A stretch of DNA of 64,000 nucleotides from a phage: the NCBI GenBank assembly GCA_026683435.1, contig GCA_026683435.1_4866.1. One strand, written 5' to 3'. Positions 123 to 63,198 of the stretch are shown piece after piece. Below the pieces are notes generated by a model that saw only the letters and a program-made list of their open reading frames with translations, did not search any database and was not told the origin of the DNA. The position numbers and the translations under genes were made by a program. Each line of letters opens with the position of its first letter. The stretch's first letter is position 1.

Positions 123-180
123 GATGCTTACCTTTTATAGTCGAGTTGGGGAAATTCAGATGAGGCTTTCTCATCTCACT

Positions 181-199
181 TAGGTAATATCTATCTGTG
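181..199 (-). promoter_or_regulatory. conserved upstream motif P1 (plus-strand reading TAGGTAATATCTATCTGTG), copy 1
   Basis: One of four near-identical copies; lies 51-69 nt upstream of the minus-strand start at 122. Confidence 0.4.
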
Positions 200-2769: not shown

Positions 2770-2845
2770 TGGCTAAATGTGGCGGGGGCACGAGGTTTCG
2801 AACCTCGAACCTTCGGTTTTGGAGACCGGTGCGCTACCAATTGCG
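2770..2845 (-). tRNA. trnW: tRNA-Trp (anticodon CCA)
   Basis: Clean cloverleaf on the minus strand: acceptor GGGGGTA/TGCCCCC, D-arm GCGC-AATTGGTA-GCGC, anticodon loop CTCCAAA, T-arm CGAGG-TTCGAAA-CCTCG, discriminator G, encoded CCA. Confidence 0.85.
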
Positions 2846-2983
2846 CCATACCCCCAGAATCTTTACTCGGGTGCCATACGGATGGGAGGGGACTTCTTGC
2901 GCTGACCAAACAACGTCAAAACCGTATCCCGTAAACCCAACTGCTTTGGCTTATCCTGATTCTTCTTCGGCTTTTGAGACACG

Positions 2984-4933: not shown

Positions 4934-5177
4934 GATCTCGGTCTTCCGTCCGATCACGATCTCTTAATAAGGATCACGCGCGCGCCCGCACGCGTTTTAA
5001 GATCTTAATATATTAATATATTTATTTATATAAATAATTATAATAATTAAATATAATACCTAAAGGTATTATTATATTTAATATTATTATATATTTTAAA
5101 AGATCCTGGAGGATACGGGTGCGCGCACGCGCACGCGTATAAGGAAAGGGTCTTCGACCCGATCCACAGGATCGATC
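4934..5177. other. GATC (Dam-site) cluster: 9 GATC in about 244 bp
   Basis: Counted directly: GATC at 4934, 4952, 4958, 4972, 5001, 5102, 5161, 5170, 5174. Confidence 0.7.
4973..5139. repeat. ~100-bp nearly pure AT palindromic core (centre near 5059-5068) flanked by alternating-CG tracts; candidate DNA unwinding element / origin
   Basis: Left flank cacgcgcgcgcccgcacgcg, right flank gtgcgcgcacgcgcacgcg; AT core with imperfect inverted symmetry around acctaaaggt. Confidence 0.6.
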
Positions 5178-5796: not shown

Positions 5797-6306
5797 TTAA
5801 CACTTGATGGTGTAGCCATCAAGGCCAAGGTGTACTGGTTTTATCCATAACCCTGGCTCCCCGAAAATATTCAGGTCGTAAGTTTGGTAATGCATGATCT
5901 TTGCAGGAACATGCACACCCATGCTTTGCAGAAATTCCCAGACGGCGACGTAGCGTTCACGAGTGATGAACATTAGCCCGGAGTCGAACCCGGAACCGAT
6001 GTCTAGGAAATTACCAAGAGAACTGTCAAAACTTGACACCCCATCTTGAGTAAGTGCGACCAACCCTTTAGTTAAATCTCTGTGGTTGTCAATGAAGTTA
6101 CAGAGATCTACGATGGTTATTTGACCGTAAATACGACGGAGGACGGCAGCAACAGCCAAAATCTCGCTGGTATTTCCGTAGTCACCTAAAGGGTTATGGT
6201 CCATCATCGCAGTAATTATGCTTGTGTCGCAGAGGTCGATTAACCGCTGGTCGTGTACCGCCAGGTTAAGACCTTGCCCCACCTGCACGGTTGGCGCAGT
6301 AAACAT
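5797..6306 (-). CDS. hypothetical protein (169 aa)
   Basis: ORF; strong AAGGAG RBS before ATG at 6306 (ORF track began at an upstream in-frame Met). Confidence 0.55.
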   Translation of the reverse strand: MFTAPTVQVGQGLNLAVHDQRLIDLCDTSIITAMMDHNPLGDYGNTSEILAVAAVLRRIYGQITIVDLCNFIDNHRDLTKGLVALTQDGVSSFDSSLGNFLDIGSGFDSGLMFITRERYVAVWEFLQSMGVHVPAKIMHYQTYDLNIFGEPGLWIKPVHLGLDGYTIKC

Positions 6307-6316
6307 AGGAGGCTCC

Positions 6317-7450
6317 TTACGTTTTGACTGACTGTGAAGGTAATCTGGCATCGTACATTAAAAAGATTTCCAGCAGGCTCATACCCGTCGCGTAAAAGAT
6401 TTGGTCTGTGATGACACTCACTAACGCATCTGGGTCAATCGCATCTACTGCGAAATCGCTGTCGAACTGCCAGAACTCGACGTCATCCCCCTTTTCAAAC
6501 GTCGCGGCATACAATCCAGGTTTCACACCACGCCGGAACGAAAAGAGTTTTGCGTCAGACTCAGTGTCCTTACCATAAATTTCCCCGTCGGTCCGTGTGA
6601 TCGCTGCGCGTTTACACCGAGTTACCGTAAGGAGCGCACGGTTTGCAGATGCTTGCGATTTAAACGGATAGGGGCCATCGTATGTCGGGACATTCTGGTC
6701 GCCTAAGGCATCAAGTGCCTTACTCCGATAGACTACCGGAGACTTAAAATTACACAGTCGATTCCCTTCGGTAAACATTGTGTATTCGACCTTAACGTCG
6801 GTACCGACGAGGTCAGCAGGGGACACTTTGTAGTGTGCTAACTGTCCCTGCACGCGGCGAGAGAGCATCGATGCCAGGAAGGTATGGTTGCCCTGTGTAC
6901 GCAAGACATAACCGAACTCTGTGCAGTCGACGATACGAGCGTCCATACGTCGTACAGGCTCCAGCCGGTAAGTCACATCATTCGCTTCGATAAGAAACTG
7001 ACTGATGCTAACATCGCGAGATCGATGTTTGATTGCTTCAAACACTTCACCCGCTTCCAGAATAGCTGGTTCAATTACATTGACCTGGAATGGGAGGGGT
7101 TTCGTCGGCCGTTGACCCATTGTTGTCACTGTCATCGAACGTAGCCACGGATCGTCCTCGCTAGGGTCATTGGAAAGCCAATGTGTTAACCAGCGAGAAA
7201 GGTTCTGAGGAATCGTTGCGGTTGAATATAAAATCACGGTACCCATTATGCCTGCATCGGCCAGCAAGCGCGCGAGTACCGTGTTCATCGAATCGTATTT
7301 GCCATTTCGAAGAATAGGTAATCCCCCGACCTGGACCATTTCGCAGATGACGCCGTGCGGCAGCACCCACATCTTCACTTGTTGGGCAGAATGTATCTGC
7401 CCCGTGCGTAGCTTTTCTTGCCACGCGTGCTTACGTTCATAGTTCATCAT
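6317..7450 (-). CDS. hypothetical protein (377 aa)
   Basis: Long ORF; AAGGAG RBS before ATG at 7450. Confidence 0.6.
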   Translation of the reverse strand: MMNYERKHAWQEKLRTGQIHSAQQVKMWVLPHGVICEMVQVGGLPILRNGKYDSMNTVLARLLADAGIMGTVILYSTATIPQNLSRWLTHWLSNDPSEDDPWLRSMTVTTMGQRPTKPLPFQVNVIEPAILEAGEVFEAIKHRSRDVSISQFLIEANDVTYRLEPVRRMDARIVDCTEFGYVLRTQGNHTFLASMLSRRVQGQLAHYKVSPADLVGTDVKVEYTMFTEGNRLCNFKSPVVYRSKALDALGDQNVPTYDGPYPFKSQASANRALLTVTRCKRAAITRTDGEIYGKDTESDAKLFSFRRGVKPGLYAATFEKGDDVEFWQFDSDFAVDAIDPDALVSVITDQIFYATGMSLLEIFLMYDARLPSQSVKT

Positions 7451-7522
7451 TGGGTAAAATCTCCTTCAGGTATACTCTCAGTATGATAACATATATCCGT
7501 AAATTTTTAGAGGTTTAGTGCC

Positions 7523-8899
7523 ATGTCTGAACTGGTTTATGATTTCAGTACCGGTTGTTATCGCGATACCGGAGTGAAGGTTGCCGTCGAATCATTCGGA
7601 CGTGACCCATTCTTCGACGATGACACGTATTCTACGGGCTTGTATTACGACTACGGTTTTGGCGGCTACGTTCCGATGGGGCTGGTAGTTGCTGCAGAAG
7701 CCATGAAGAATGACCGATTACGTAAAGTGTTTGACGAATGCTTTAAACACGTCGTAATCGATCGTCGTTTTGCAAAGCAAATTCAACTTCACGTAGACAA
7801 CATCCTTAAACGTGAAGGCAATGTGGAGTGGCTAGGGTCTAATCTATTAGGCGTCCACACCATTCGTTTCTACGATTCTGACCGTAACCGCTTTTTTGAA
7901 GATGTCTTGAAAGTGGATGAAGATTATCTGTTCGAGATGATTAAAGAATCGGGTACGATTAACACCGACTGGGCAGTGGCGGGTGATCCGTATAACCTCT
8001 CTACAGTGTATACTCTACATCGAATGATGTCGAAATTCGCCGATCGTGAAATCCACGCCGCGGCGGTATCGTTGGTAACGTTGCTGCAATTCAAATTCTA
8101 CTCCAGTATATATTATCACTTCTTCCCCAAGCCGGTCGACATGGCCGCTGCCGACGCCGCATACTCGATGTTGTCGTTAAAGTTCGATATCCGTCGTTTA
8201 GGCAACTGGGGTCTGCACATGCAGGAGCGTTCAGAATACTTCTGTTCTCCGGAGTACCCAAACTACGACGCGGTTAAACGTTTTGATACGCCAGACCTGG
8301 TATTGCGTTTTATCACCGACCTGAACACCCGTACCAAACAAACTGTGAAGGACTATTACGCGGTGCTGGACAAAGTGCGTCGTGATAACAGTCGTGTGAT
8401 TACGCAGTCAACCCGAATTGAGTTAGACGGTGAATCGATTATCCGTGACAAAGTGGGTGCGCTGGATATCGCTAAGCAGAATTTGTTCGATGCGTCTTAC
8501 GACATCAACAATCTCTACAAAGAGCAATTGGCAAAAGTGGTGTTGGAGCTAGTACCCAAAGCATCTCCCGCGGCACTGAAAACTTTGCTGGCGTATATTG
8601 CAAGTCTACCGCTTGGCAAAAAGCGTGATGAGATTAACGCTATCATGGAGGACACGCTATCGCACGCGTTCGATGAAATTGTTACCTCTCGTCTGAACTT
8701 TAACGATGCGAGCACGGTTCTACTGCGTATGCGTTCGTTGTACCAGGCTTCGAAGTCCCCTAACCCATACGTGTTATCGTTGCGTGAACGGATTGAGAAA
8801 CTGGCCGCACGGGAAACACACATCCGCCATGAAGCCGCTCTGGCTGCCTTACGTAATGCGTTACTGTTGTACTTCTTGATCCGCTCTTTGCAGAAATAA
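7523..8899 (+). CDS. hypothetical protein (458 aa)
   Basis: Long ORF, lone plus-strand gene here; followed by a terminator. Confidence 0.6.
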   Translation: MSELVYDFSTGCYRDTGVKVAVESFGRDPFFDDDTYSTGLYYDYGFGGYVPMGLVVAAEAMKNDRLRKVFDECFKHVVIDRRFAKQIQLHVDNILKREGNVEWLGSNLLGVHTIRFYDSDRNRFFEDVLKVDEDYLFEMIKESGTINTDWAVAGDPYNLSTVYTLHRMMSKFADREIHAAAVSLVTLLQFKFYSSIYYHFFPKPVDMAAADAAYSMLSLKFDIRRLGNWGLHMQERSEYFCSPEYPNYDAVKRFDTPDLVLRFITDLNTRTKQTVKDYYAVLDKVRRDNSRVITQSTRIELDGESIIRDKVGALDIAKQNLFDASYDINNLYKEQLAKVVLELVPKASPAALKTLLAYIASLPLGKKRDEINAIMEDTLSHAFDEIVTSRLNFNDASTVLLRMRSLYQASKSPNPYVLSLRERIEKLAARETHIRHEAALAALRNALLLYFLIRSLQK

Positions 8900-16493: not shown

Positions 16494-18539
16494 ATGACTT
16501 TTATTCCACGAAACGGCGCGCCGTTGAATAACAAGCAAGGTTGGCAGGATAACTCTGTCCCCGAGCTTGTGCGTACCCCTACGGGTGACGCAATTCATAA
16601 GCCGCTGATCTTCACCTTTGCCGCGCGCGGGGTAGACAACGAGGCGTTCCCGTTAACCGGGGATAATGCACTGTCTCTGCTTGGTCGCAATGTCTTTGAC
16701 TTGCGAGGCCCCTACGCGACGTTTAACACGCCCTATCAGGCGATGTTCAACGCTAACGCAAACGAGTGTATGTATCAGCGCTTGATCCCTGAAGATGCGA
16801 AAACCGCAAGTGTTCGCGTATTCGCCGACGTACTCGAAACGAAAGTTCCGTCCTACGAACGCGACAGCAACGGGATCGTTCAGTACGGCAACTCGGGCAA
16901 GCCCAAGATCAAAGAACAAGTTGACGGTTTGGTAATCGTCTTCCGTTCTGTCGTAATCGACGAAACTACCCCGGCCATCGGCGCAGGTGTGGTTATCGAG
17001 GGGACGATGACTGGCGAAGGCGGCACGAAATCGAAGCTGTATCCGTTGTTCGATATCGCAGGCCCGTATGCGGGTGCTGACGTCAACGGTTTCGGTTTCA
17101 AACTGATCCCACTCAGCGAGAAATCCAGCCCGGCTCTGACCTCCTCCTATCAAAATGAAGTCGGTGGTCGTGTTTACACCCTGCAATGGTTCGAAACCCT
17201 GGCAGGCGTGACTTCTCCGGTAGTGTGGAAAACTCTCACTGGCATGAGTAGCATCAATTTTAGCTTTAAGCCCGATGCATACTATCAGCCGATGAGAACG
17301 CAACTCGACTTCGAAGTTGTTGTTGCGGATGCATATCGTCAGACGATGCCTGACATTGGCGAGCTGCCAGATTATGGTCCTTTCGAGCAGTTCTATCTGT
17401 ATCGCGAGAACCTGGAAACTGTACTGGGCTTGGCTCAGGCCGCTATCACAACTGATGCGCCTGCTGACCCGTATATGGTTGACATCTTTGGCGGCTATGA
17501 TTTACTGGGCCAGCCTTACGATGGTCTTCAGGTAAACCCGGCTACTGAAACCGGTAAAGTTGTGTTCTCCGCATCCAACATCCACTACCTGCAAGGTGGT
17601 AGCGATGGTACCATGAACAACGACGTTTACGACGAACTCGTTCGCCGTGAAATGCTGCTGTTCCCGGATGGTGGTAAAGTCCGTTACGACAACGAGCTGA
17701 AATACTCGCTGGGTTGTTTCTGGGACTCTGGCTTTAGCTTCGATACTAAAGCTGCGCTCGTGAACTTCATCGGTCGTTCACGTAACACCTTCTTGACGCT
17801 GGCGACTCACGTTTACAGCCAAGGCCGTAACGATGAGCAGACAGAAGAAAGTGCAAAAATCGCCCTGATCGAATTGATCACAGCGGTACCGGAATCTGCC
17901 TATTACGGCACTCCGGCTGCACGTGGTATGGTCACCGGCCAATCGGCGTTCATCAAGAACTCTTCCTACAAGAAGCCTGTTCCGATGAACTACTCCCTGG
18001 CGAACTTCTTCTCGAAGTACCTGGGTGCAGGCGACGGTCGTGCAAAACCGGCTTATCGTTTCAGCCGTGGCGAACTGACGATTATCGAAGATCTGACTGA
18101 CCTGAGTATGCCGTGGAAAGGCAACGAAGTGTATGCGTCTGACTGGGATGTGTCGCTGATCACTGCCCGTTCCTACGACTACTATCGCTTGTTCATTCCG
18201 GCGATTCAGTCAATCTACAGCGAAGATCGTTCTGTACTGAACAACGCCCTGTTCAACTTCATGATGACCTACGTCTATCGTGTTTCCGACCGTGTATGGG
18301 CGGACATGTCTGGCGAAGCGGCCATGACGGATGATGAACGTGCGAAGATGATTGAGAACAAAATTATCGAACGTCTGGAAGGCCGTCTCGATAACGTTGC
18401 TGTCGTCACTCCGAAGGCGTACTTCACTGCAGACGATAAATCCAATGGTTACTCTGTGACGCTGGACCTGATCGCTGAAGGCGGTGTGCTGCTCACCCAG
18501 TTCAACACCACTATCAAAGTTTACCGTCGGGAGAGCTAA
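16494..18539 (+). CDS. putative tail sheath protein (681 aa)
   Basis: Size and pairing with a ~290-aa downstream gene match phiKZ-type sheath/tube pairs; GGAGA RBS; strong terminator after the pair; no diagnostic motif checked. Confidence 0.5.
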   Translation: MTFIPRNGAPLNNKQGWQDNSVPELVRTPTGDAIHKPLIFTFAARGVDNEAFPLTGDNALSLLGRNVFDLRGPYATFNTPYQAMFNANANECMYQRLIPEDAKTASVRVFADVLETKVPSYERDSNGIVQYGNSGKPKIKEQVDGLVIVFRSVVIDETTPAIGAGVVIEGTMTGEGGTKSKLYPLFDIAGPYAGADVNGFGFKLIPLSEKSSPALTSSYQNEVGGRVYTLQWFETLAGVTSPVVWKTLTGMSSINFSFKPDAYYQPMRTQLDFEVVVADAYRQTMPDIGELPDYGPFEQFYLYRENLETVLGLAQAAITTDAPADPYMVDIFGGYDLLGQPYDGLQVNPATETGKVVFSASNIHYLQGGSDGTMNNDVYDELVRREMLLFPDGGKVRYDNELKYSLGCFWDSGFSFDTKAALVNFIGRSRNTFLTLATHVYSQGRNDEQTEESAKIALIELITAVPESAYYGTPAARGMVTGQSAFIKNSSYKKPVPMNYSLANFFSKYLGAGDGRAKPAYRFSRGELTIIEDLTDLSMPWKGNEVYASDWDVSLITARSYDYYRLFIPAIQSIYSEDRSVLNNALFNFMMTYVYRVSDRVWADMSGEAAMTDDERAKMIENKIIERLEGRLDNVAVVTPKAYFTADDKSNGYSVTLDLIAEGGVLLTQFNTTIKVYRRES

Positions 18540-18542
18540 TAG

Positions 18543-19418
18543 ATGGCAATCAAAGATCGTCTCATTTTGCCTGATCAGGGTCTGCACGTCGACGGCGGCC
18601 AGTACGATATGGTCAACGCGTTCTCCTCGGGCCAAAACGGCCCGGTTGGACAGGTTGGCAAGTTCGTTACTAACGCCTCTCGTCTGCGTCGTAACGTCAT
18701 CGCGCGCGTCATGGAATTCCCTCGTTGGGTGGATTACATGCCGAACCCGCAGATGTGGCGTCAGGCTATCAAGTCCTTTATCGAGGTTCACTCCGAGATT
18801 ACTGGTCTGGATAAAACCCTGAGCCATGCGGCTGTTGAAACTCAGCAGGGTCGTAACAACCGCACCCAGTATGAAGCTGGTCTGGTAACGGAAGCACTGT
18901 CCTCTGTTACCTTCACCACCCCGGATAAACTCGGGAAGGTGTACCAAAACATGCTGTGGGCGTGGCTGGTTTACGGTGTTTGTGATCCCCAGACTGGTCA
19001 CCCGGGCCTGGCCGCAATCAACCCGAACGTTCCTGACCACCTGCCGGATATGTACAGCATGACCGTGCTGTTCATCGAGCCAGATGCGTATCAGCGTAAA
19101 CCGCAGAACGCGTGGTGGTTAACGAACATGATTCCGGAAACCGCTGGCCAGGATATCGGTGAGCGTGAAACCAACACCGGTCCGCAGATTAACGAACTGT
19201 CAATCGCCTTTACCTCCCAGCAATGGACAGGTTGGGGTCCGATGCAGGCTGCTGCGAAAGAGCTGGAGCGTATGAAGCTGTACGGTCTGCGTCCTTACGA
19301 GCGCAAACTGTGGCTTACTCCGTCTCAGCAGACCGATGGTATCAACCCGGACGTCAACGCAACCCCAGGTGGTTACAACTCTGTCTCCGACGAGCAGATG
19401 GCCAACCAGATGCGCTAA
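18543..19418 (+). CDS. putative tail tube protein (291 aa)
   Basis: Starts 4 nt after the sheath stop; followed by a strong terminator. Confidence 0.45.
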   Translation: MAIKDRLILPDQGLHVDGGQYDMVNAFSSGQNGPVGQVGKFVTNASRLRRNVIARVMEFPRWVDYMPNPQMWRQAIKSFIEVHSEITGLDKTLSHAAVETQQGRNNRTQYEAGLVTEALSSVTFTTPDKLGKVYQNMLWAWLVYGVCDPQTGHPGLAAINPNVPDHLPDMYSMTVLFIEPDAYQRKPQNAWWLTNMIPETAGQDIGERETNTGPQINELSIAFTSQQWTGWGPMQAAAKELERMKLYGLRPYERKLWLTPSQQTDGINPDVNATPGGYNSVSDEQMANQMR

Positions 19419-19420
19419 GA

Positions 19421-19476
19421 CAAAAAAAAACAAGCGTTACCTCTCTCCAGACGGAGAGAGGTACGTTTTATTTTTT
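19421..19476. terminator. bidirectional intrinsic terminator (acctctctcc-agac-ggagagaggt)
   Basis: 10-bp stem 19439-19462 flanked by A-run upstream and T-run downstream; between convergent genes. Confidence 0.7.
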
Positions 19477-20013: not shown

Positions 20014-20065
20014 AGCTCCAAAATCAAAAAAAAATAGGGCAGTCATAAGACCACCCCATTGTTTA

Positions 20066-20269
20066 CTACTTCCGACCGTATAGCGAAGCAAGCCCTTCTA
20101 ACTGCAGCGGCTTCGGCATAGGTTTAGGGAAGGTGACAGTGAGACCGATTTCCTCGTGTGACGCAATGGTGCCATCCCAACGTAACCCAGTAGCAGGATT
20201 CACATTAGGATGGCATTCCACTTTAGCCCCGAGTAGCTCAGCGAGTTCCTTTGGGCTGGACGGAATCAT
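20066..20269 (-). CDS. hypothetical small protein (67 aa)
   Basis: ATG overlaps the stop of the upstream gene (TAATG coupling). Confidence 0.3.
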   Translation of the reverse strand: MIPSSPKELAELLGAKVECHPNVNPATGLRWDGTIASHEEIGLTVTFPKPMPKPLQLEGLASLYGRK

Positions 20270-20757
20270 TATTCGTCGTCTTCGTCTTCTTCATCGGTTG
20301 CCATCATGGACTTGGCAAACTCTTTACGCAGCTTGCCTTCCAACGCTTTAGACTTCGGAGAACCGAAACCGTAAGAGATGGACGCTGCCCATTCTTTCTG
20401 AGTTGGGTTTTCAGTAACCGGGCGAGAGAACACGGTAGAGAATGCTGCGTTACCGATATCCAGCGTTAAGTCCAGTGCACCGATATCGCTATCCGCTTTC
20501 GCACGGTCAGCAATCAGACCACCGGCAATGCCACCGAACAGTTCAGTGAAGTTTGCGTCGTGCTGTCGCAGAGCGTCCGCGTCTTCCAGTGTGAAGCGAT
20601 AGTCCACATCCCCAACACGTGTTACGGGGAGTGTTTCTTCGTAAATCTTAACCAGCGGCTCAGCATTCAGCGCCAGGTCTTCGGACAGGGTTGCTGCCGG
20701 CGTGTCCAGTTCAGCGATCAGTTTGTGCAGTGCTTTCATTGAAGTTACTTCAGCCAT
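20269..20757 (-). CDS. hypothetical acidic protein (162 aa, C-terminal EEDEDDE tail)
   Basis: ORF with AAGGAA RBS. Confidence 0.55.
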   Translation of the reverse strand: MAEVTSMKALHKLIAELDTPAATLSEDLALNAEPLVKIYEETLPVTRVGDVDYRFTLEDADALRQHDANFTELFGGIAGGLIADRAKADSDIGALDLTLDIGNAAFSTVFSRPVTENPTQKEWAASISYGFGSPKSKALEGKLRKEFAKSMMATDEEDEDDE

Positions 20758-20783: not shown

Positions 20784-21455
20784 TTAATCGTGTGAAAGAC
20801 GAGCTTCGAGGTCGTCGATAATGGTATCTGTGAAATAGCTAATATCTAGCTGCTCCACGAAATCCCTGCGTTCCAGAATGCGCTCTGCGAAGAGCGTACC
20901 GTACCAACTAGGGACATTACTAATACCGTTGCGTCCGAACTTCTGTTGGACGTGACCAACGGCATGGAATTTTGCATCGCCTTTACTTTTACCCTGTTCA
21001 CGGGCAAACAGATAAGAACGGTGCATGTAATTACTCACGTCATCTACAGACGGTATACCACGGTCAGCTGCGGCAACTATCTCAGAGACAATCCCGTTGT
21101 AGTTCCCTTTGTGAGAACTGCGGTGTTCTAAGACTGCATGGGCAATCGTCAAACATTCATCATCGGTAAGTTTATACTTACGTTTGAGCACTGGCTTGTT
21201 ATCCAGTATCCAGCTATACCCTTTGATGTGGTGCGATGCACGGTCTTCTTTGGTAGAGAAGATATCGTGAGCTGCCACCGCAATCAGTACCAGCTTCAGG
21301 TGTTCGGTTTGCCCAAGCATATACGCGATACGAATCGCATTTGATTTAACTGAGTTGATGTGATCCATGCGATGCGCACTATCGGTATAACGATAGAAGT
21401 CGCGGAATTGACGAACCAGTTTTTCCCAAAGTTTGTTGAGTTCAGTGCCCTGCAT
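20784..21455 (-). CDS. HD-domain phosphohydrolase
   Basis: H...HD signature (AHRMDH, VAAHDIF); TAAGGAATATT RBS. Confidence 0.6.
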   Translation of the reverse strand: MQGTELNKLWEKLVRQFRDFYRYTDSAHRMDHINSVKSNAIRIAYMLGQTEHLKLVLIAVAAHDIFSTKEDRASHHIKGYSWILDNKPVLKRKYKLTDDECLTIAHAVLEHRSSHKGNYNGIVSEIVAAADRGIPSVDDVSNYMHRSYLFAREQGKSKGDAKFHAVGHVQQKFGRNGISNVPSWYGTLFAERILERRDFVEQLDISYFTDTIIDDLEARLSHD

Positions 21456-21473
21456 GTAAATATTCCTTACGAT

Positions 21474-21487
21474 AATGGTCGATTAAC
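21474..21487 (-). promoter_or_regulatory. conserved palindromic motif P2 (TAATGGTCGATTAA), copy 1
   Basis: Same 14-mer, one mismatch allowed, found 18-34 nt upstream of three minus-strand starts. Confidence 0.4.
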
Positions 21488-21489
21488 TA

Positions 21490-21879
21490 CTACGAGAATG
21501 TGTGATAACAACGTGTCAGTGTAACCTTCACGTTATCAGAATGGTCTTCGTTGGTATACAACACCGGCCAGATAATGTTATCAGACGAAAGCGCCTTTGA
21601 TAACCCTTCAATCAATTCCTTCATTGAGGTTCCCTTCAGCCGATGGGTCGTACGCCACCTGTGTGACGTCATACGGCTATAAACCACCATATCTGGTGTA
21701 AGGGTACTACTTTCCTCTTTAATCTCCTCTAAACGCTTCTCCTCGCTTTCTACGAAGCTTAGTAAAGCATCTGGATTTCGAACAAACTCACCGAAACGAT
21801 CGTCTCGGCGCAAGCCACAAAGAACCCACAGCGTGAATGGGTCTCTGCACGCATCTACTAACCCCTCTGCGATTTTCAT
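21490..21879 (-). CDS. hypothetical protein (129 aa)
   Basis: ORF in operon context. Confidence 0.5.
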   Translation of the reverse strand: MKIAEGLVDACRDPFTLWVLCGLRRDDRFGEFVRNPDALLSFVESEEKRLEEIKEESSTLTPDMVVYSRMTSHRWRTTHRLKGTSMKELIEGLSKALSSDNIIWPVLYTNEDHSDNVKVTLTRCYHTFS

Positions 21880-21933
21880 TTTATTCCTTCCTACACAGTC
21901 AAAGGATTTGTACGATTCGTGATTTTTGAGAGA

Positions 21934-22332
21934 TCAGATTAGCTGCTCGGCGCGCAAACGTCTCAAAGTGTTCGTTGCTGTAACAAGAACATCTTGCAGT
22001 TCTTGCATTGCTTCACCAACAAAGAACGGTTTAAGATGCAGGTCGCTAGTGATGAGTCCGCCGTATTTGTACGGTAGGTCTGTAATATCACAGACGATGG
22101 GATTTTTTGCTCGCCACGTTTCATCAGCAACAAGAATAAGAAACTTCCAGGCGTCTTGATTGCCGAGCGATTCACCGGTTTCTGGCTTGTAGAGTTCTTT
22201 TAAACGTTTATCGCGCTCGGAGATAAGGTATTCGTCATCAGTCAACAGACGAATTAAATCGGCTTCGTTGCTCTCGGCTTTAGCACAAAGCATCATGGCA
22301 ACAAACGGGTCTTGGCGTAGTTGGTTAGTCAT
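21934..22332 (-). CDS. hypothetical protein (132 aa)
   Basis: ORF; AGAAGGAG RBS. Confidence 0.5.
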   Translation of the reverse strand: MTNQLRQDPFVAMMLCAKAESNEADLIRLLTDDEYLISERDKRLKELYKPETGESLGNQDAWKFLILVADETWRAKNPIVCDITDLPYKYGGLITSDLHLKPFFVGEAMQELQDVLVTATNTLRRLRAEQLI

Positions 22333-22352
22333 TGTAAATACTCCTTCTGGGT

Positions 22353-22366
22353 AATAGTCGATTAAA
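22353..22366 (-). promoter_or_regulatory. motif P2 (TAATAGTCGATTAA), copy 2
   Basis: 21-34 nt upstream of the start at 22332. Confidence 0.4.
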
Positions 22367-22388
22367 GCGTTAACGTGTAACGCTCACC

Positions 22389-22417
22389 TAAGTAATATAT
22401 ATCTCAGTTCTTTTTGA
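22389..22417 (-). promoter_or_regulatory. motif P1 (TAAGTAATATATATCTCAG TTCTTTTTGA), copy 2
   Basis: Near-identical to the copies at 181, 54049 and 63167. Confidence 0.4.
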
Positions 22418-22478
22418 ATGCAATTAATAAAATAAAAAGACTCACCCGTATCCGAAGATAGGATGAGCCTAGTGGAGC

Positions 22479-23027
22479 TTAGACTTGCAGTAGTGTCCCC
22501 GAGTGAGTAATCGGGTCATTGTAGAACGCTTCACACTGGAGGCAAATGCCATCAATGTTCGGTTCTTCAGTTCGCGACCATATTGCCGCGCCACCTTGCA
22601 AAATCCATTCTCGACAGTTACGACCATAATCGTCGACAAGCAAATTACCTCGCGAGGCGTAAGCTTTCTTCTGCCCTGAACTTTCGGTGACGATGACTTT
22701 GTCAGCTGGTACCCCAAAGTGCTTCATGAACCACCGTTGTTTTGAATCCACGACCAATTGGTGGTCGTAGTGATCTTCTGACCCAGAGGTGAGTATTGCC
22801 CAACTGTCGCAAAGTCTATCTACCGTTTCCAGGATTCGCTCTACACCCTCAATTGGTTCGAGTTTGTAAAACAAGTCAGGATCGTTCTGATACATCGAAC
22901 GAACCAAACTACGACGGCGGAGTTCAGGTAATGCGTTAAACTCTTTAATCGTCATTCCGGGAAAATGTGTGGATAAAACGTATTTACGCCAGCGTGCAAA
23001 AACGCCATCGCTATCCAGATAAAACAT
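22479..23027 (-). CDS. HAD-superfamily hydrolase, 5-prime(3-prime)-deoxyribonucleotidase-like
   Basis: N-terminal FYLDSDGVF (HAD motif I, DxDG) and C-terminal LLVDD; AAGGA RBS before ATG at 23027. Confidence 0.5.
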   Translation of the reverse strand: MFYLDSDGVFARWRKYVLSTHFPGMTIKEFNALPELRRRSLVRSMYQNDPDLFYKLEPIEGVERILETVDRLCDSWAILTSGSEDHYDHQLVVDSKQRWFMKHFGVPADKVIVTESSGQKKAYASRGNLLVDDYGRNCREWILQGGAAIWSRTEEPNIDGICLQCEAFYNDPITHSGTLLQV

Positions 23028-24069: not shown

Positions 24070-24873
24070 TTACCAGCTCCTTACACCCATGCCCATTACC
24101 CGCAGATTGGACACTTTCGGAGCCAGCTGCAGGTATTCCTGCGCGAGTTGCTGGAGAGCACCACGACGGGACTCAGTGGCAACAGCGCTGGTCGTTGTCG
24201 GATTGTACAGAATGTCTTCCAACACTTGACGACTGATAGGGCGGTCGACGTAAGTGCGAGTAGATTCCTGTGCCACTTTACTACCGCGTTGAATCGCAGA
24301 GTATTTGTTACAGATTTGCAGGCCATCTTCAATAACCCAGTCAAAGGTGACCAGTTTATCGATGCGGCGTACGATAGTCGTACCCAGACGACCTTCACGA
24401 ACGATAGCACGCAGTGAGAAACACACGTTCTGATGTGGGTTCTCTAGTGCTTCCGCCAGAAGCGGACCACGTTCACGGTTAGGTTTAATCCAACCCCAAA
24501 TTTCCATCACCGGCAGACCGTTACACATCTGGTCGGTCGGCTTCACTTCTACTTCGCGAATGTGCATACACACGTTACGCGTTTCGATCCATTCGTTACG
24601 TTCGATCCACTGGGCTTCGCTCATGCCTTGTTCGTATTGCGGATGGTCTTCTTCACCGAAGAGATTCCCCGCCAAAACTTTACGCATGAAAACGTTAGAG
24701 CGCTCGAAGACATGTTTTGACTCGTTATAGGCGTAGTAAATATTCTCAGAGTTGAAAATATTCAGTGCACCTAACAGGACGTAGTAATACCCGTCCGCAT
24801 CTTTCTTTAGCGTTGCCCCTTTATTGACCCCAGCGAGTGCCACGCAGTTATAACGTAGTGACAAGTTTTCCAT
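24070..24873 (-). CDS. hypothetical protein (267 aa)
   Basis: ORF. Confidence 0.55.
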   Translation of the reverse strand: MENLSLRYNCVALAGVNKGATLKKDADGYYYVLLGALNIFNSENIYYAYNESKHVFERSNVFMRKVLAGNLFGEEDHPQYEQGMSEAQWIERNEWIETRNVCMHIREVEVKPTDQMCNGLPVMEIWGWIKPNRERGPLLAEALENPHQNVCFSLRAIVREGRLGTTIVRRIDKLVTFDWVIEDGLQICNKYSAIQRGSKVAQESTRTYVDRPISRQVLEDILYNPTTTSAVATESRRGALQQLAQEYLQLAPKVSNLRVMGMGVRSW

Positions 24874-43375: not shown

Positions 43376-43795
43376 GCGTTCAATAATCACTTTTACGATA
43401 TCTTCTACCGGAGGGTAATACCACAGAACCACGCTGTTTCGTCCCAAGTCTTTTGGAAACGTTTGACAGTACGCAATGTCGGTGCCGAAGCGCTCAGAGA
43501 GCTTTAAAACGTTCTCTGGGAATTGACAGCCTCCTCGCCAATCATGCGTATAGAGTACCTGCTGTAGTAACTTCACATTAGCATCGAAGAAGTACAGATT
43601 TTCCACTGGCGCAATATGTGGTACCGGAATTGGCGTGTCTGTAAGTACGAACTCCAAACCACCACATTGTTCTGAACGCTCCGCTAGGAATTTCAGATGC
43701 CATGGCATTAGACCGTGGTCTTCCCAGACGATATTGTTGACCAGTAAACGATCAACGTATTCATCGTAATCAACCGTGAACAGTTTCTTCGCCAT
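43373..43795 (-). CDS. hypothetical protein (~140 aa)
   Basis: ORF; start placed at the ATG at 43795. Confidence 0.45.
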   Translation of the reverse strand: MAKKLFTVDYDEYVDRLLVNNIVWEDHGLMPWHLKFLAERSEQCGGLEFVLTDTPIPVPHIAPVENLYFFDANVKLLQQVLYTHDWRGGCQFPENVLKLSERFGTDIAYCQTFPKDLGRNSVVLWYYPPVEDIVKVIIER

Positions 43796-44711
43796 CGGTA
43801 AACGCCTCATCTTTTACAGTAAGGGAACCGTTTACTTCGATTTCAGCGGCGGTCATGTCTGCTTCTTTAACGAATATACCGTCCGCGTTCAGGAAACCCT
43901 TACGGTCTTTGATTTCATCCCACGCCAGAGAGAAACACTGTTCCAGAGTCATATCGTACGCATTAGCCAGCGCATTGGCGTATTCGACCATCTGCGCGAA
44001 GTGACATTCGATCATTACCGCGTCGCTGTTCTCGAAGTGTTTATATTCGAGTTGCTTAGCTGAGTCGATGCCGGCTTGATCCCAGATGTAATCAACAGCT
44101 GCTGTGAGATGGAAACGCATTTTGTGGAACAAGTAATGACTGTTCCCGGCATGTGGGTTCTTTGAACGCGCTTCGTTGACATATGTGCTGATATCGGTCG
44201 AGTCAAACTTAATGAGTTCCATCAAGTTAACCAGCACGACCAGAGCATCACCGATACCGTCCATGATGTAACGGCGTTTGTTTTTACTGATACCGGTTGC
44301 CGCTTCACCGTCTTCTTCGTAGAGTTTGGTGGCTTGGCTATACCAGACGCCGTTATCCAGAATACCACGCGCTTTAGACCAACCCATAACGTTAGTAATA
44401 CATTGTGGGATGGTGTACAAAGGTACGTAACGCGGACGATCAACCGTACCACGATACTCGACACCTTCCAATGTCCACGGCATTTCGAAATCGTTTACTT
44501 CTAAACTCTGATCGCCGGTAAAGACTTTACCTTCGACGTAAGTGTGACCGGTTTCACTGTTCACGCACAGGGTGTACAGTTTCTCAAAGGACCACGGTTT
44601 AACAAACTGACGTTGGCAAAATCCAGCCAGAAGCTCATTAATCTGTGCCAGGTACTGGTTAGGTTCAACAATTACGTTGTACGGAATCTGGATAATGAAA
44701 CGATCGCCCAT
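43770..44711 (-). CDS. hypothetical protein (313 aa)
   Basis: Long ORF; no secure motif. Confidence 0.55.
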   Translation of the reverse strand: MGDRFIIQIPYNVIVEPNQYLAQINELLAGFCQRQFVKPWSFEKLYTLCVNSETGHTYVEGKVFTGDQSLEVNDFEMPWTLEGVEYRGTVDRPRYVPLYTIPQCITNVMGWSKARGILDNGVWYSQATKLYEEDGEAATGISKNKRRYIMDGIGDALVVLVNLMELIKFDSTDISTYVNEARSKNPHAGNSHYLFHKMRFHLTAAVDYIWDQAGIDSAKQLEYKHFENSDAVMIECHFAQMVEYANALANAYDMTLEQCFSLAWDEIKDRKGFLNADGIFVKEADMTAAEIEVNGSLTVKDEAFTDGEETVHG

Positions 44712-47031: not shown

Positions 47032-48069
47032 TTAGATAGCGACAGGCGCAGATATTTTTTCATGAGACTGATACCCAACGATCTCAAAATCTTCGAACTT
47101 ATAATCGAAGATAGAATCCGGTTTACGCTTGATGACCAGTTTCGGTAAAGGTAAAGGTTCGCGCGTCAGCTGCAATTTAGCCTGTTCCAGATGGTTGGAG
47201 TACAGATGTACGTCACCACCACTCCAAACGAAATCGCCTGGAACCATGTTAACTTGCTGAGCTACCATGTGTACGAGTAATGCGTAAGACGCGATGTTGA
47301 ACGGTGTTCCCAGGAAGAAGTCTTGGGAACGTGCATACAGCTGACATGAAAGAATGCGGCGAGGTATTTCAAGTGCGTCCATCTCAACGTGGAACACTGC
47401 GTCGTCTGCAACAGCTTCATTACTAAAGCGGGAATCGTTAAATTGATCTGGAAGGTTCTTTTCAAACCAATCAAGACGCTCGTCGATAGACAGCTCACGA
47501 GTGTAGAACTGAAAGAACGCATGACACGGAGCTAACGCCATTTGATCCAACTCACCCACATTCCATGCGCTGACAATAATACGGCGACTGTCAGGATCGT
47601 TACGCAGTTGGTCAATCACCTTAGAGATTTGGTCGTGTAGTTTCAGAAGTACACGCGCATCGAACATTTGTGAACCGTCGTCCGCGTCGCCATAATCCAC
47701 GTATCCTGCATCTTGCAGTTTCTCGAGTAAAGCTGCATTTTTCTTAGGCACCAGTTTCACATCTTTCCAACGTCTCCACTGTTCCCCATACAGGGGGCCA
47801 AGGTTCCCATTTTCATCTTGCCACTCCCGCCAAATGGTAACGCCGTTATCTTCCAGATATTTGGTGTTGGTATCGCCACTAAGGAACCACAGCAGTTCGT
47901 GAATAATAGAACGCAGGTGGAGTTTTTTAGTCGTGACTAGCGGGAAACCTTTGCGCAAATCAAAACGCATTTGGCGACCAAAGACGGAGAGCGTCCCTGT
48001 TCCAGTACGGTCGCCTTTAACATGCCCTTCATCCAGAATATTCTGCATCGTTTCAAGGTATTGCTTCAT
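47032..48069 (-). CDS. thyA: thymidylate synthase
   Basis: Near-identical blocks to E. coli ThyA (MKQYLE...[51 protein letters not shown], ends ISAPVAI); two insertions relative to E. coli. Confidence 0.92.
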
Positions 48070-54015: not shown

Positions 54016-54048
54016 AGGTGTTATCCTATTATGAGATGTTGTCTCGGA

Positions 54049-54077
54049 TAGATAATATCTGTCTGAGTTCTTTTTGA
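54049..54077 (-). promoter_or_regulatory. motif P1 (TAGATAATATCTGTCTGAG TTCTTTTTGA), copy 3, in a divergent intergenic region
   Basis: Between the minus start at 54015 and the plus start at 54092. Confidence 0.45.
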
Positions 54078-59875: not shown

Positions 59876-59889
59876 TAATGGTCGATTAA
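59876..59889 (-). promoter_or_regulatory. motif P2 (TAATGGTCGATTAA), copy 3
   Basis: 18-31 nt upstream of the start at 59858, just downstream (minus sense) of a terminator hairpin. Confidence 0.45.
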
Positions 59890-63133: not shown

Positions 63134-63166
63134 CGTGAATAAATTCTCCTTAAGGTTACGTCCCTG

Positions 63167-63198
63167 TAGATAATATCTATCTCAGATTACTTTAAGAG
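63167..63198 (-). promoter_or_regulatory. motif P1 (TAGATAATATCTATCTCAG ATTACTTTAAGAG), copy 4
   Basis: Same spacing to the gene start (63133) as copy 3. Confidence 0.45.

Follow-up and report, generated by a model that had tools for sequence, protein, structure and literature searches.

Two Phosphohydrolase Genes in an SPN3US-like Jumbo Phage

The window analyzed here is a stretch of 64,000 nucleotides of phage DNA (NCBI GenBank assembly GCA_026683435.1, contig GCA_026683435.1_4866.1), and the subject of this study is a pair of minus-strand genes within it that encode a protein of the HD superfamily and a protein of the HAD superfamily. The original prediction, made from the sequence alone, had read them as an HD-domain hydrolase and a DxDG phosphatase resembling deoxyribonucleotidases, and had grouped them with a thymidylate synthase gene into a set by which the phage would reshape its deoxynucleoside triphosphate (dNTP) pool, possibly in evasion of nucleotide-depletion defences or in support of modified DNA. 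Both open reading frames lie exactly where they had been placed (Table I), and the family assignments held: profile, fold, and motif for the HD protein, a score above the NT5C threshold and an NT5C fold for the HAD protein. Profile searches thus put both proteins in the expected families and not among unrelated functions, and all catalytic residues are kept in both.

The 5.5 kb spanning both genes are 98.6% identical to Salmonella phages SPFM2/4 and 97.8% identical to SPN3US, and the neighboring genes (S80 prohead protease, tail sheath, and tail tube) agree, so that the window can be assigned by its sequence to an SPN3US-like Salmonella jumbo phage (genus Seoulvirus). The SPFM/SPN3US relatives are 240-kb phiKZ-related jumbo phages, and SPN3US is counted among the nucleus-forming Chimalliviridae. 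The HD protein is 100% identical to a protein of SPFM11/13/16 and 99.1% identical to one of Proteus phage 7, and the HAD protein is 100% identical to its SPN3US counterpart, a homolog being labelled "NT5C" already in the SPFM19 record. Both genes, with their families and positions, are therefore already known from the GenBank entries for SPN3US, the SPFM phages, Proteus phage 7, and many Erwinia phages. Counting from gp241/gp244, the HD gene would be SPN3US gp251 and the HAD gene gp248, for which we found no report of function in the literature. The tblastn matches to both genes are split into 3-6 pieces in LR535904, LR535906-LR535908, and LR535912 (SPFM7, 8, 9, 10, and 14), and some of the annotated SPFM6, 12, and 15 proteins cover a small part of the query only, which suggests frameshift-type sequencing errors in these assemblies and not true gene decay.

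The HD Protein Belongs with YedJ, 2pq7, and YpgQ

The HD protein has no Pfam match at E ≤ 0.1 and does not reach the gathering score of PF01966 (HD), a model matched at E ≤ 0.01 by 24 of the 59 members of its family; its membership in the superfamily is thus given by profile, fold, and motif. Similarly, a single-sequence phmmer search of the PDB returned no match, and the links to solved structures came from family profiles alone. A profile from 21 close homologs matches PDB 2pq7 (E = 8e-6), and the broader 59-member profile matches YedJ 3gw7 (8e-13), 2pq7 (4e-12), 3djb, 3b57, and YpgQ 5dqv (7.5e-4). The AlphaFold model is confident (predicted local distance difference test score (pLDDT) of 91.8) and shows the all-helical HD fold, with 2pq7, 2pjq, YpgQ, and SE1688 at the top of the Foldseek ranking. 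The relationship does not extend to orthology with YedJ, since the NCBIfam YedJ model (NF007515/PRK10119) scores 23.9 bits (E = 2.5e-5) against a curated equivalog cut-off of 286 bits, and the protein belongs instead to a related clade. It is ~16-21% identical to E. coli YedJ (3gw7) and to the Thermotogales HD hydrolase 2pq7, which are themselves without a known substrate.

The protein carries the motif HxxxH...HD...H...H...D, of which H28, H32, H63, D64, H75, H111, and D131 are invariant among relatives down to 25% identity. The metal-binding H32, H63-D64, and D131 are invariant in the 21 close as well as the 59 distant relatives, and D25, R72, R112, S114, R146, H168, K172, and Y185 are nearly so. 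In a hidden Markov model alignment to B. subtilis YpgQ (5dqv/5dqw), a Mn-dependent (d)NTP pyrophosphohydrolase, H32, H63, D64, and D131 correspond to the metal ligands H29, H58, D59, and D124. The HD protein also keeps the four nucleotide-contacting residues, its H28, R146, F150, and H164 corresponding to H25, R136, F140, and H158, which make the phosphate, ribose, and base contacts of YpgQ (PMC8177086), in one marginal alignment (E = 7.5e-4) obtained with the broad profile only. On the other hand, YpgQ is mononuclear (PMC8177086) and has no counterparts of H75 and H111, which are invariant in all 59 sequences and common to YedJ and 2pq7. A review of the superfamily associates the H...HD...H...H...D pattern with two-metal sites (PMC8177086). 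From their conservation, H75 and H111 may be second-metal ligands. Their spacing presumably differs from that of the corresponding residues in YqeK. On these comparisons the protein is best described as a nucleotide-binding HD hydrolase of the YedJ/2pq7/YpgQ clade whose catalytic apparatus is intact.

HD-type 5'-nucleotidases provide a precedent for an HD enzyme tied to thymidylate metabolism. For example, Streptomyces PenF has a YpgQ-like core with an H...HD...D motif and dephosphorylates deoxynucleoside monophosphates (dNMPs), E. coli YfbR supplies thymidylate synthesis by way of deoxycytidine, and Dmp of phage T5 is an HD-type 5'-nucleotidase acting on dNMPs. YfbR was not among the PDB matches listed for the HD protein in the profile and Foldseek searches, and sequence does not decide between monophosphatase and pyrophosphatase chemistry for this enzyme.

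The resemblance of the HD fold to phosphodiesterases, together with the possible two-metal site, raises the main alternative, namely that the protein is not a manager of the dNTP pool but an early host-takeover or anti-defence phosphodiesterase that destroys a signalling nucleotide (cAMP/cGMP/cCMP/cUMP, cyclic di- or oligonucleotides, (p)ppGpp, or Ap4A). The class I cyclic-nucleotide phosphodiesterases (PDE1-10) are only ~10% identical to it and have catalytic domains longer by 100 or more residues, and their profile matches to the family are insignificant (E > 0.2); we regard this alternative as unlikely. It is more doubtful still that the HD protein works on the ends of nucleic acids, whether as a nuclease or in RNA processing, in the manner of the HD domains of YhaM, RNase Y, and Cas3, or that the HAD protein acts on a non-nucleotide phosphoester.

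A Widespread HD Family with MazG and ThyX Fusions

A search of 1.84 billion representatives returned 1,079 family matches at E ≤ 1e-3, of which 625 at E ≤ 1e-10. The family occurs in jumbo phages of Erwinia, Salmonella, Aeromonas, Vibrio, and Fusobacterium as well as in Klebsiella phage N1M2, Serratia phage PCH45, and Pseudomonas phage Noxifer, and in Aeromonas phage ZPAH34 the homolog again adjoins the tail tube and sheath genes. The neighborhoods of the HD homologs of PCH45, ZPAH34, and a Fusobacterium phage, like those of the HAD homologs of GAP161 and pVa-21, hold nothing but hypothetical proteins and are informative for synteny only.

Two distant members are informative as to metabolism. 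One (P0116) is a fusion of MazG and HD domains, and the other (P0210), located on chimallin-bearing contigs of ENA and JGI samples, is an intein-interrupted fusion of HD and ThyX; both carry the family signature AHAVLEHR...SE..AADRG. Because the partners MazG and ThyX are enzymes of the deoxynucleotide pool, these fusions support a tie of the HD clade to deoxynucleotide and thymidylate metabolism, with a role around deoxyuridine and deoxythymidine monophosphate (dUMP/dTMP). The HD-ThyX fusion is one 780-residue open reading frame at 6001-8343 of two metagenomic chimallin-encoding contigs (L012 and L013); its intein is of the Hint/LAGLIDADG type and lies inside the ThyX thymidylate synthase, and a TnpB/Cas12f-like gene is found two genes downstream.

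The HAD Protein Is an NT5C-family Phosphatase by Sequence and Model

The HAD protein matches Pfam NT5C (PF06941; 5'(3')-deoxyribonucleotidases) with 34.1 bits (cut-off 24.8; E = 3.1e-8). Among PHROGs, it fits phrog_420 ("unknown function"; 3e-34) better than the annotated phrog_2643 ("5'-3' deoxyribonucleotidase"; 7e-19). Searched against the PDB, the single sequence finds the cytosolic and mitochondrial deoxyribonucleotidases (cdN/mdN) at E ~0.008, and a profile of close homologs gave no match at E ≤ 0.01. The model (pLDDT, 95.2) consists of a Rossmann-like core and a four-helix cap (helices 13-20, 27-32, 35-48, and 52-55) inserted between strand 1 and the core, and the best Foldseek matches are human cdN 2i7d (24% identity), the deoxyribonucleotidase-like S. 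epidermidis protein 3bwv, and designed proteins that we take to derive from the cdN/mdN scaffold.

All four HAD motifs can be recognized (I, LDSDG; II, LTS; III, K120; IV, VDD), and D5-S-D7-G, T80-S81, K120 (as well as K96 and K102), and D132-D133 are invariant in 15 homologs, as are the cap aromatics Y46, F53, and Y54 among homologs. Y46 presumably aligns with the cap-domain tyrosine of cdN. Human cdN/mdN (NT5C/NT5M; PDB 2i7d and 2jao) share these four motifs and the conserved LEPI.G segment with the phage protein, although overall identity is only about a quarter and the Pfam match is limited to residues 40-141. Sequence and model together thus identify the HAD protein as a genuine member of the NT5C family whose active site is intact.

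A Terminator and an Early-promoter-type Motif Separate the Two Genes

Past the HAD stop codon lies a hairpin followed by a U-run, resembling an intrinsic terminator, which folds with -18.3 kcal/mol (z = -4.27; none of 200 shuffles folds as well) and is kept with its T-run in a relative (L006). It is followed by the motif TGAGATATATATTACTTAGGTGAG, in which the phiKZ early-promoter core TATATTAC is embedded and which is similar to the motif of phage 201phi2-1 (core and motif: PMC7058600). In phiKZ-like phages, AT-rich motifs ~10 nt upstream of the start site have been tied to early transcription driven by the virion polymerase (PMC7598289 and PMC11512511). The extended 24-nt form, TYTCAGATATATATTACCTAGGTGAG, occurs 11 times in 237 kb of SPFM4 (98.6% identical) and in none of 20 shuffles; all copies (loci L003, L004, and L008-L011) are intergenic and co-oriented with the downstream gene, mostly ~40-95 nt before its ATG. 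Hairpin and 24-nt motif are both preserved, despite diverged flanks, in a lineage with 67% protein identity. It is the extended motif that is significant; the bare 8-mer TATATTAC shows no enrichment over the window (3 copies versus 1.1 expected; 11 of 100 shuffles reach 3). A scan for sigma-70 promoters stayed at chance (7 found versus 7.9 expected), as is to be expected of a phage using its own RNA polymerases. We found no description of the 24-nt motif in SPN3US-type phages in the searchable literature.

From this arrangement, the HD gene would be the third of a putative five-gene unit that starts with the phiKZ-type early-promoter motif and ends at the terminator-like site beyond the two small genes that follow it. 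A position weight matrix scan detected no minus-strand copy of the 24-nt motif between 23027 and 54066, so that the HAD gene, which closes the virion-RNA-polymerase/protease block, lacks an early-type promoter. The HD and HAD genes are thus probably expressed from different transcription units, and the terminator and early-type motif between them argue that they do not form one module.

A second conserved element, AATCGACYATTA...AAGGAG, was observed at near-fixed spacing before many genes (the ATG follows ~29-31 nt after the start of the element), including the HD gene itself and most genes after the early-type motif, with ~10 more copies in SPFM4; it could be a shared 5'-untranslated region, a translation-initiation element, or a processing site. 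At the far side of the minus-strand block, a perfect hairpin with an 11-bp stem and T-runs on both strands lies between the last gene of the block and the convergent tail-tube gene (plus strand) and looks like a bidirectional terminator.

Table I. Features of the 64,000-nt window discussed in the text
Feature	Coordinates	Strand	Remarks
HD-superfamily phosphohydrolase gene	20784-21455	-	223 aa; SPN3US counterpart YP_009153545, "putative HD domain protein"
HAD-superfamily NT5C-family phosphatase gene	22479-23027	-	182 aa; N terminus MFYLDSDG; SPN3US counterpart YP_009153542
Intrinsic-terminator-like hairpin and U-run	22426-22470	-	Starts 9 nt past HAD stop codon
Early-promoter-type motif TGAGATATATATTACTTAGGTGAG	22383-22406	-	~50 nt upstream of ATG of next gene
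Putative early operon gene 1	21934-22332	-	132 aa; phrog_27024, function unknown
Putative early operon gene 2	21490-21879	-	129 aa; phrog_23206, function unknown
Small gene past HD gene	20269-20757	-	162 aa; function unknown
Small gene past HD gene	20066-20269	-	67 aa; function unknown
Terminator-like hairpin and T-run	20033-20060	-	Probable end of putative early operon
Weaker early-promoter-type motif copy	54043-54066	-	28.3 bits; upstream of minus-strand block with ThyA and MazG-like genes
24-nt motif copy	175-198	-	
Weaker 24-nt motif copies	63161-63184; 7477-7500	-	
AATCGACYATTA element	21475-21484; 22354-22363; 59878-59887	-	
Hairpin with T-runs on both strands	19438-19463		
Tail sheath and tube genes	16494-19418		
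S80 prohead protease gene	24070-24873		Pfam, 1e-84
Thymidylate synthase gene, ThyA	47032-48069	-	345 aa; Pfam, 4e-112; separate unit
MazG-like gene, putative nucleotide pyrophosphohydrolase	43770-44711	-	Pfam, E = 0.0017, below cut-off; SPFM4 homolog annotated MazG
tRNA-Trp (CCA) gene	2780-2855	-	Adjoins HslV-like peptidase gene (SPFM4 annotation)
Stretch without open reading frame over 76 aa	4027-5796		1.77 kb; unannotated in SPFM4 too

HD, HAD, and Thymidylate Synthase Probably Do Not Form One Set

The original prediction treated HD, HAD, and thymidylate synthase as a set. In its fullest form, this reading makes the three a coordinated module for modified DNA or for escape from nucleotide-depletion defences, in which, for example, HD would convert dNTP to dNMP and HAD dNMP to deoxynucleoside, excluding one canonical base. 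In its favor, deoxynucleotides are plausible substrates of both enzymes, HD is found fused to ThyX elsewhere, and the order of the two genes stays the same in relatives down to 36-38% HD identity. However, this shared order is whole-block colinearity: the succession of protease, two small genes, HAD, two small genes, HD, small genes, and tail tube and sheath recurs in contigs with an HD protein 67% identical and in one at 36-38%. In addition to being separated by the terminator and promoter motif, each gene occurs alone, HD without HAD in Aeromonas, Vibrio, and Klebsiella phages, and HAD in T4-like phages of Cronobacter and Enterobacter, which do not have this HD gene, and in Vibrio phage pVa-21, where HAD occupies the same syntenic spot in a block that has no HD gene.

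The thymidylate synthase gene lies 24 kb off, with virion RNA polymerase genes and an oppositely oriented tail-fibre module in between. Its product aligns closely with E. coli ThyA (264 residues) apart from two insertions (~103-145 and 192-239) and keeps the cysteine of PCHAFFQFY, which is catalytic, and the asparagine of HLYSNH, which specifies dUMP. A canonical ThyA, together with the dihydrofolate reductase (DHFR) and thymidylate kinase that SPFM4 also encodes, indicates on sequence grounds that this phage has ordinary thymine DNA, and modified DNA finds no support. Furthermore, the nucleotide genes of SPFM4 are dispersed (DHFR at 50.6 kb, thymidylate kinase at 84.8, ThyA at 188, MazG-like at 191.6, NT5C at 213.3, and HD at 214.9), and early-type motifs stand ahead of the HD gene, DHFR, and the ThyA/MazG-like block, as would fit if nucleotide genes were generally expressed early, and not a special module at this site.

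Evasion of nucleotide-depletion defences fares no better, since enzymes that remove phosphate do not restore a depleted dNTP pool, and PADLOC returned no match for HD, HAD, their four small neighbors, or the MazG-like protein. A coordinated module of the three genes is therefore highly improbable. Of the wider claim of a role in the dNTP pool, the link to nucleotide metabolism is the part that stands, as the best-supported function in view of the YpgQ-type residues, the MazG and ThyX fusions, and the NT5C assignment; the co-regulated set is not.

Two further features of the window were observed. It contains a single tRNA gene (Table I) and a long stretch lacking sizeable open reading frames, which has no family match in Rfam. 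Within the latter, at 4978-5145, two GC-rich alternating purine/pyrimidine 25-mers (GCGCGCGCCCGCACGCG...), 143 nt apart, flank ~105 nt of nearly pure, palindromic A+T, so that the stretch resembles an unwinding element of the kind found at origins, or some other cis-acting site.

DISCUSSION

The explanation that we favor, and consider somewhat better than even, is that this nucleus-forming jumbo phage of the SPN3US type carries HD and HAD as separate accessory genes, each for a small metal-dependent nucleotide phosphohydrolase. From the observed folds, motifs, and family placement, we infer the substrates of both. The HD protein would hold its catalytic metal by H32, H63, D64, and D131, contact the phosphate through H28, and bind sugar and base with R146, F150, and H164, its most likely substrates being free (deoxy)nucleoside tri- or monophosphates. 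The HAD protein would be an NT5C-type Mg-dependent phosphatase in which D5 forms the phospho-aspartyl intermediate, D7 acts as acid/base, T80/S81 and K120 bind phosphate, and D132/D133 bind Mg, and it most likely turns (deoxy)nucleoside monophosphates into nucleosides.

Timing and physiological role are what we infer from synteny and from the terminator and motif sequences. As the third gene of a unit opened by a phiKZ-type early-promoter motif, the HD gene is probably expressed early, its product presumably being made by the injected virion RNA polymerase, and its job would most likely be the cleaning or channelling of the deoxynucleotide pool around the dUMP/dTMP branch. The HAD gene, on the other hand, is the last before a strong terminator, closing the virion-RNA-polymerase/head-protease block.

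A more specific and rather speculative extension is that chimalliviruses use the HD family to supply or protect the thymidylate branch; the enzyme could, for example, be a dUTP/dCTP pyrophosphohydrolase that stands in for the missing trimeric dUTPase and, early in infection, provides thymidylate synthase with dUMP. This suggestion draws on the HD-ThyX and MazG-HD fusions, the YpgQ-type nucleotide-binding residues, the early-type promoter, and the fact that no trimeric dUTPase was detectable in 237 of the 240 kb of SPFM4 with an E. coli Dut query (best match E = 0.21). If this is true, a first activity could be assigned to the YedJ/2pq7 clade, the founder of which, in E. coli, is as yet uncharacterized.

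As such, these ordinary and already annotated genes matter little. What the present analysis adds is the placement of the HD protein in the YedJ/2pq7/YpgQ clade with nucleotide-binding residues that appear intact, the fusions to MazG and ThyX, the division of HAD from HD by a terminator and an early-type motif, and the lack of support for the modified-DNA idea. From a functional point of view, the HD branch that is widespread in jumbo phages may be a reasonable test case for the function of the uncharacterized YedJ clade.

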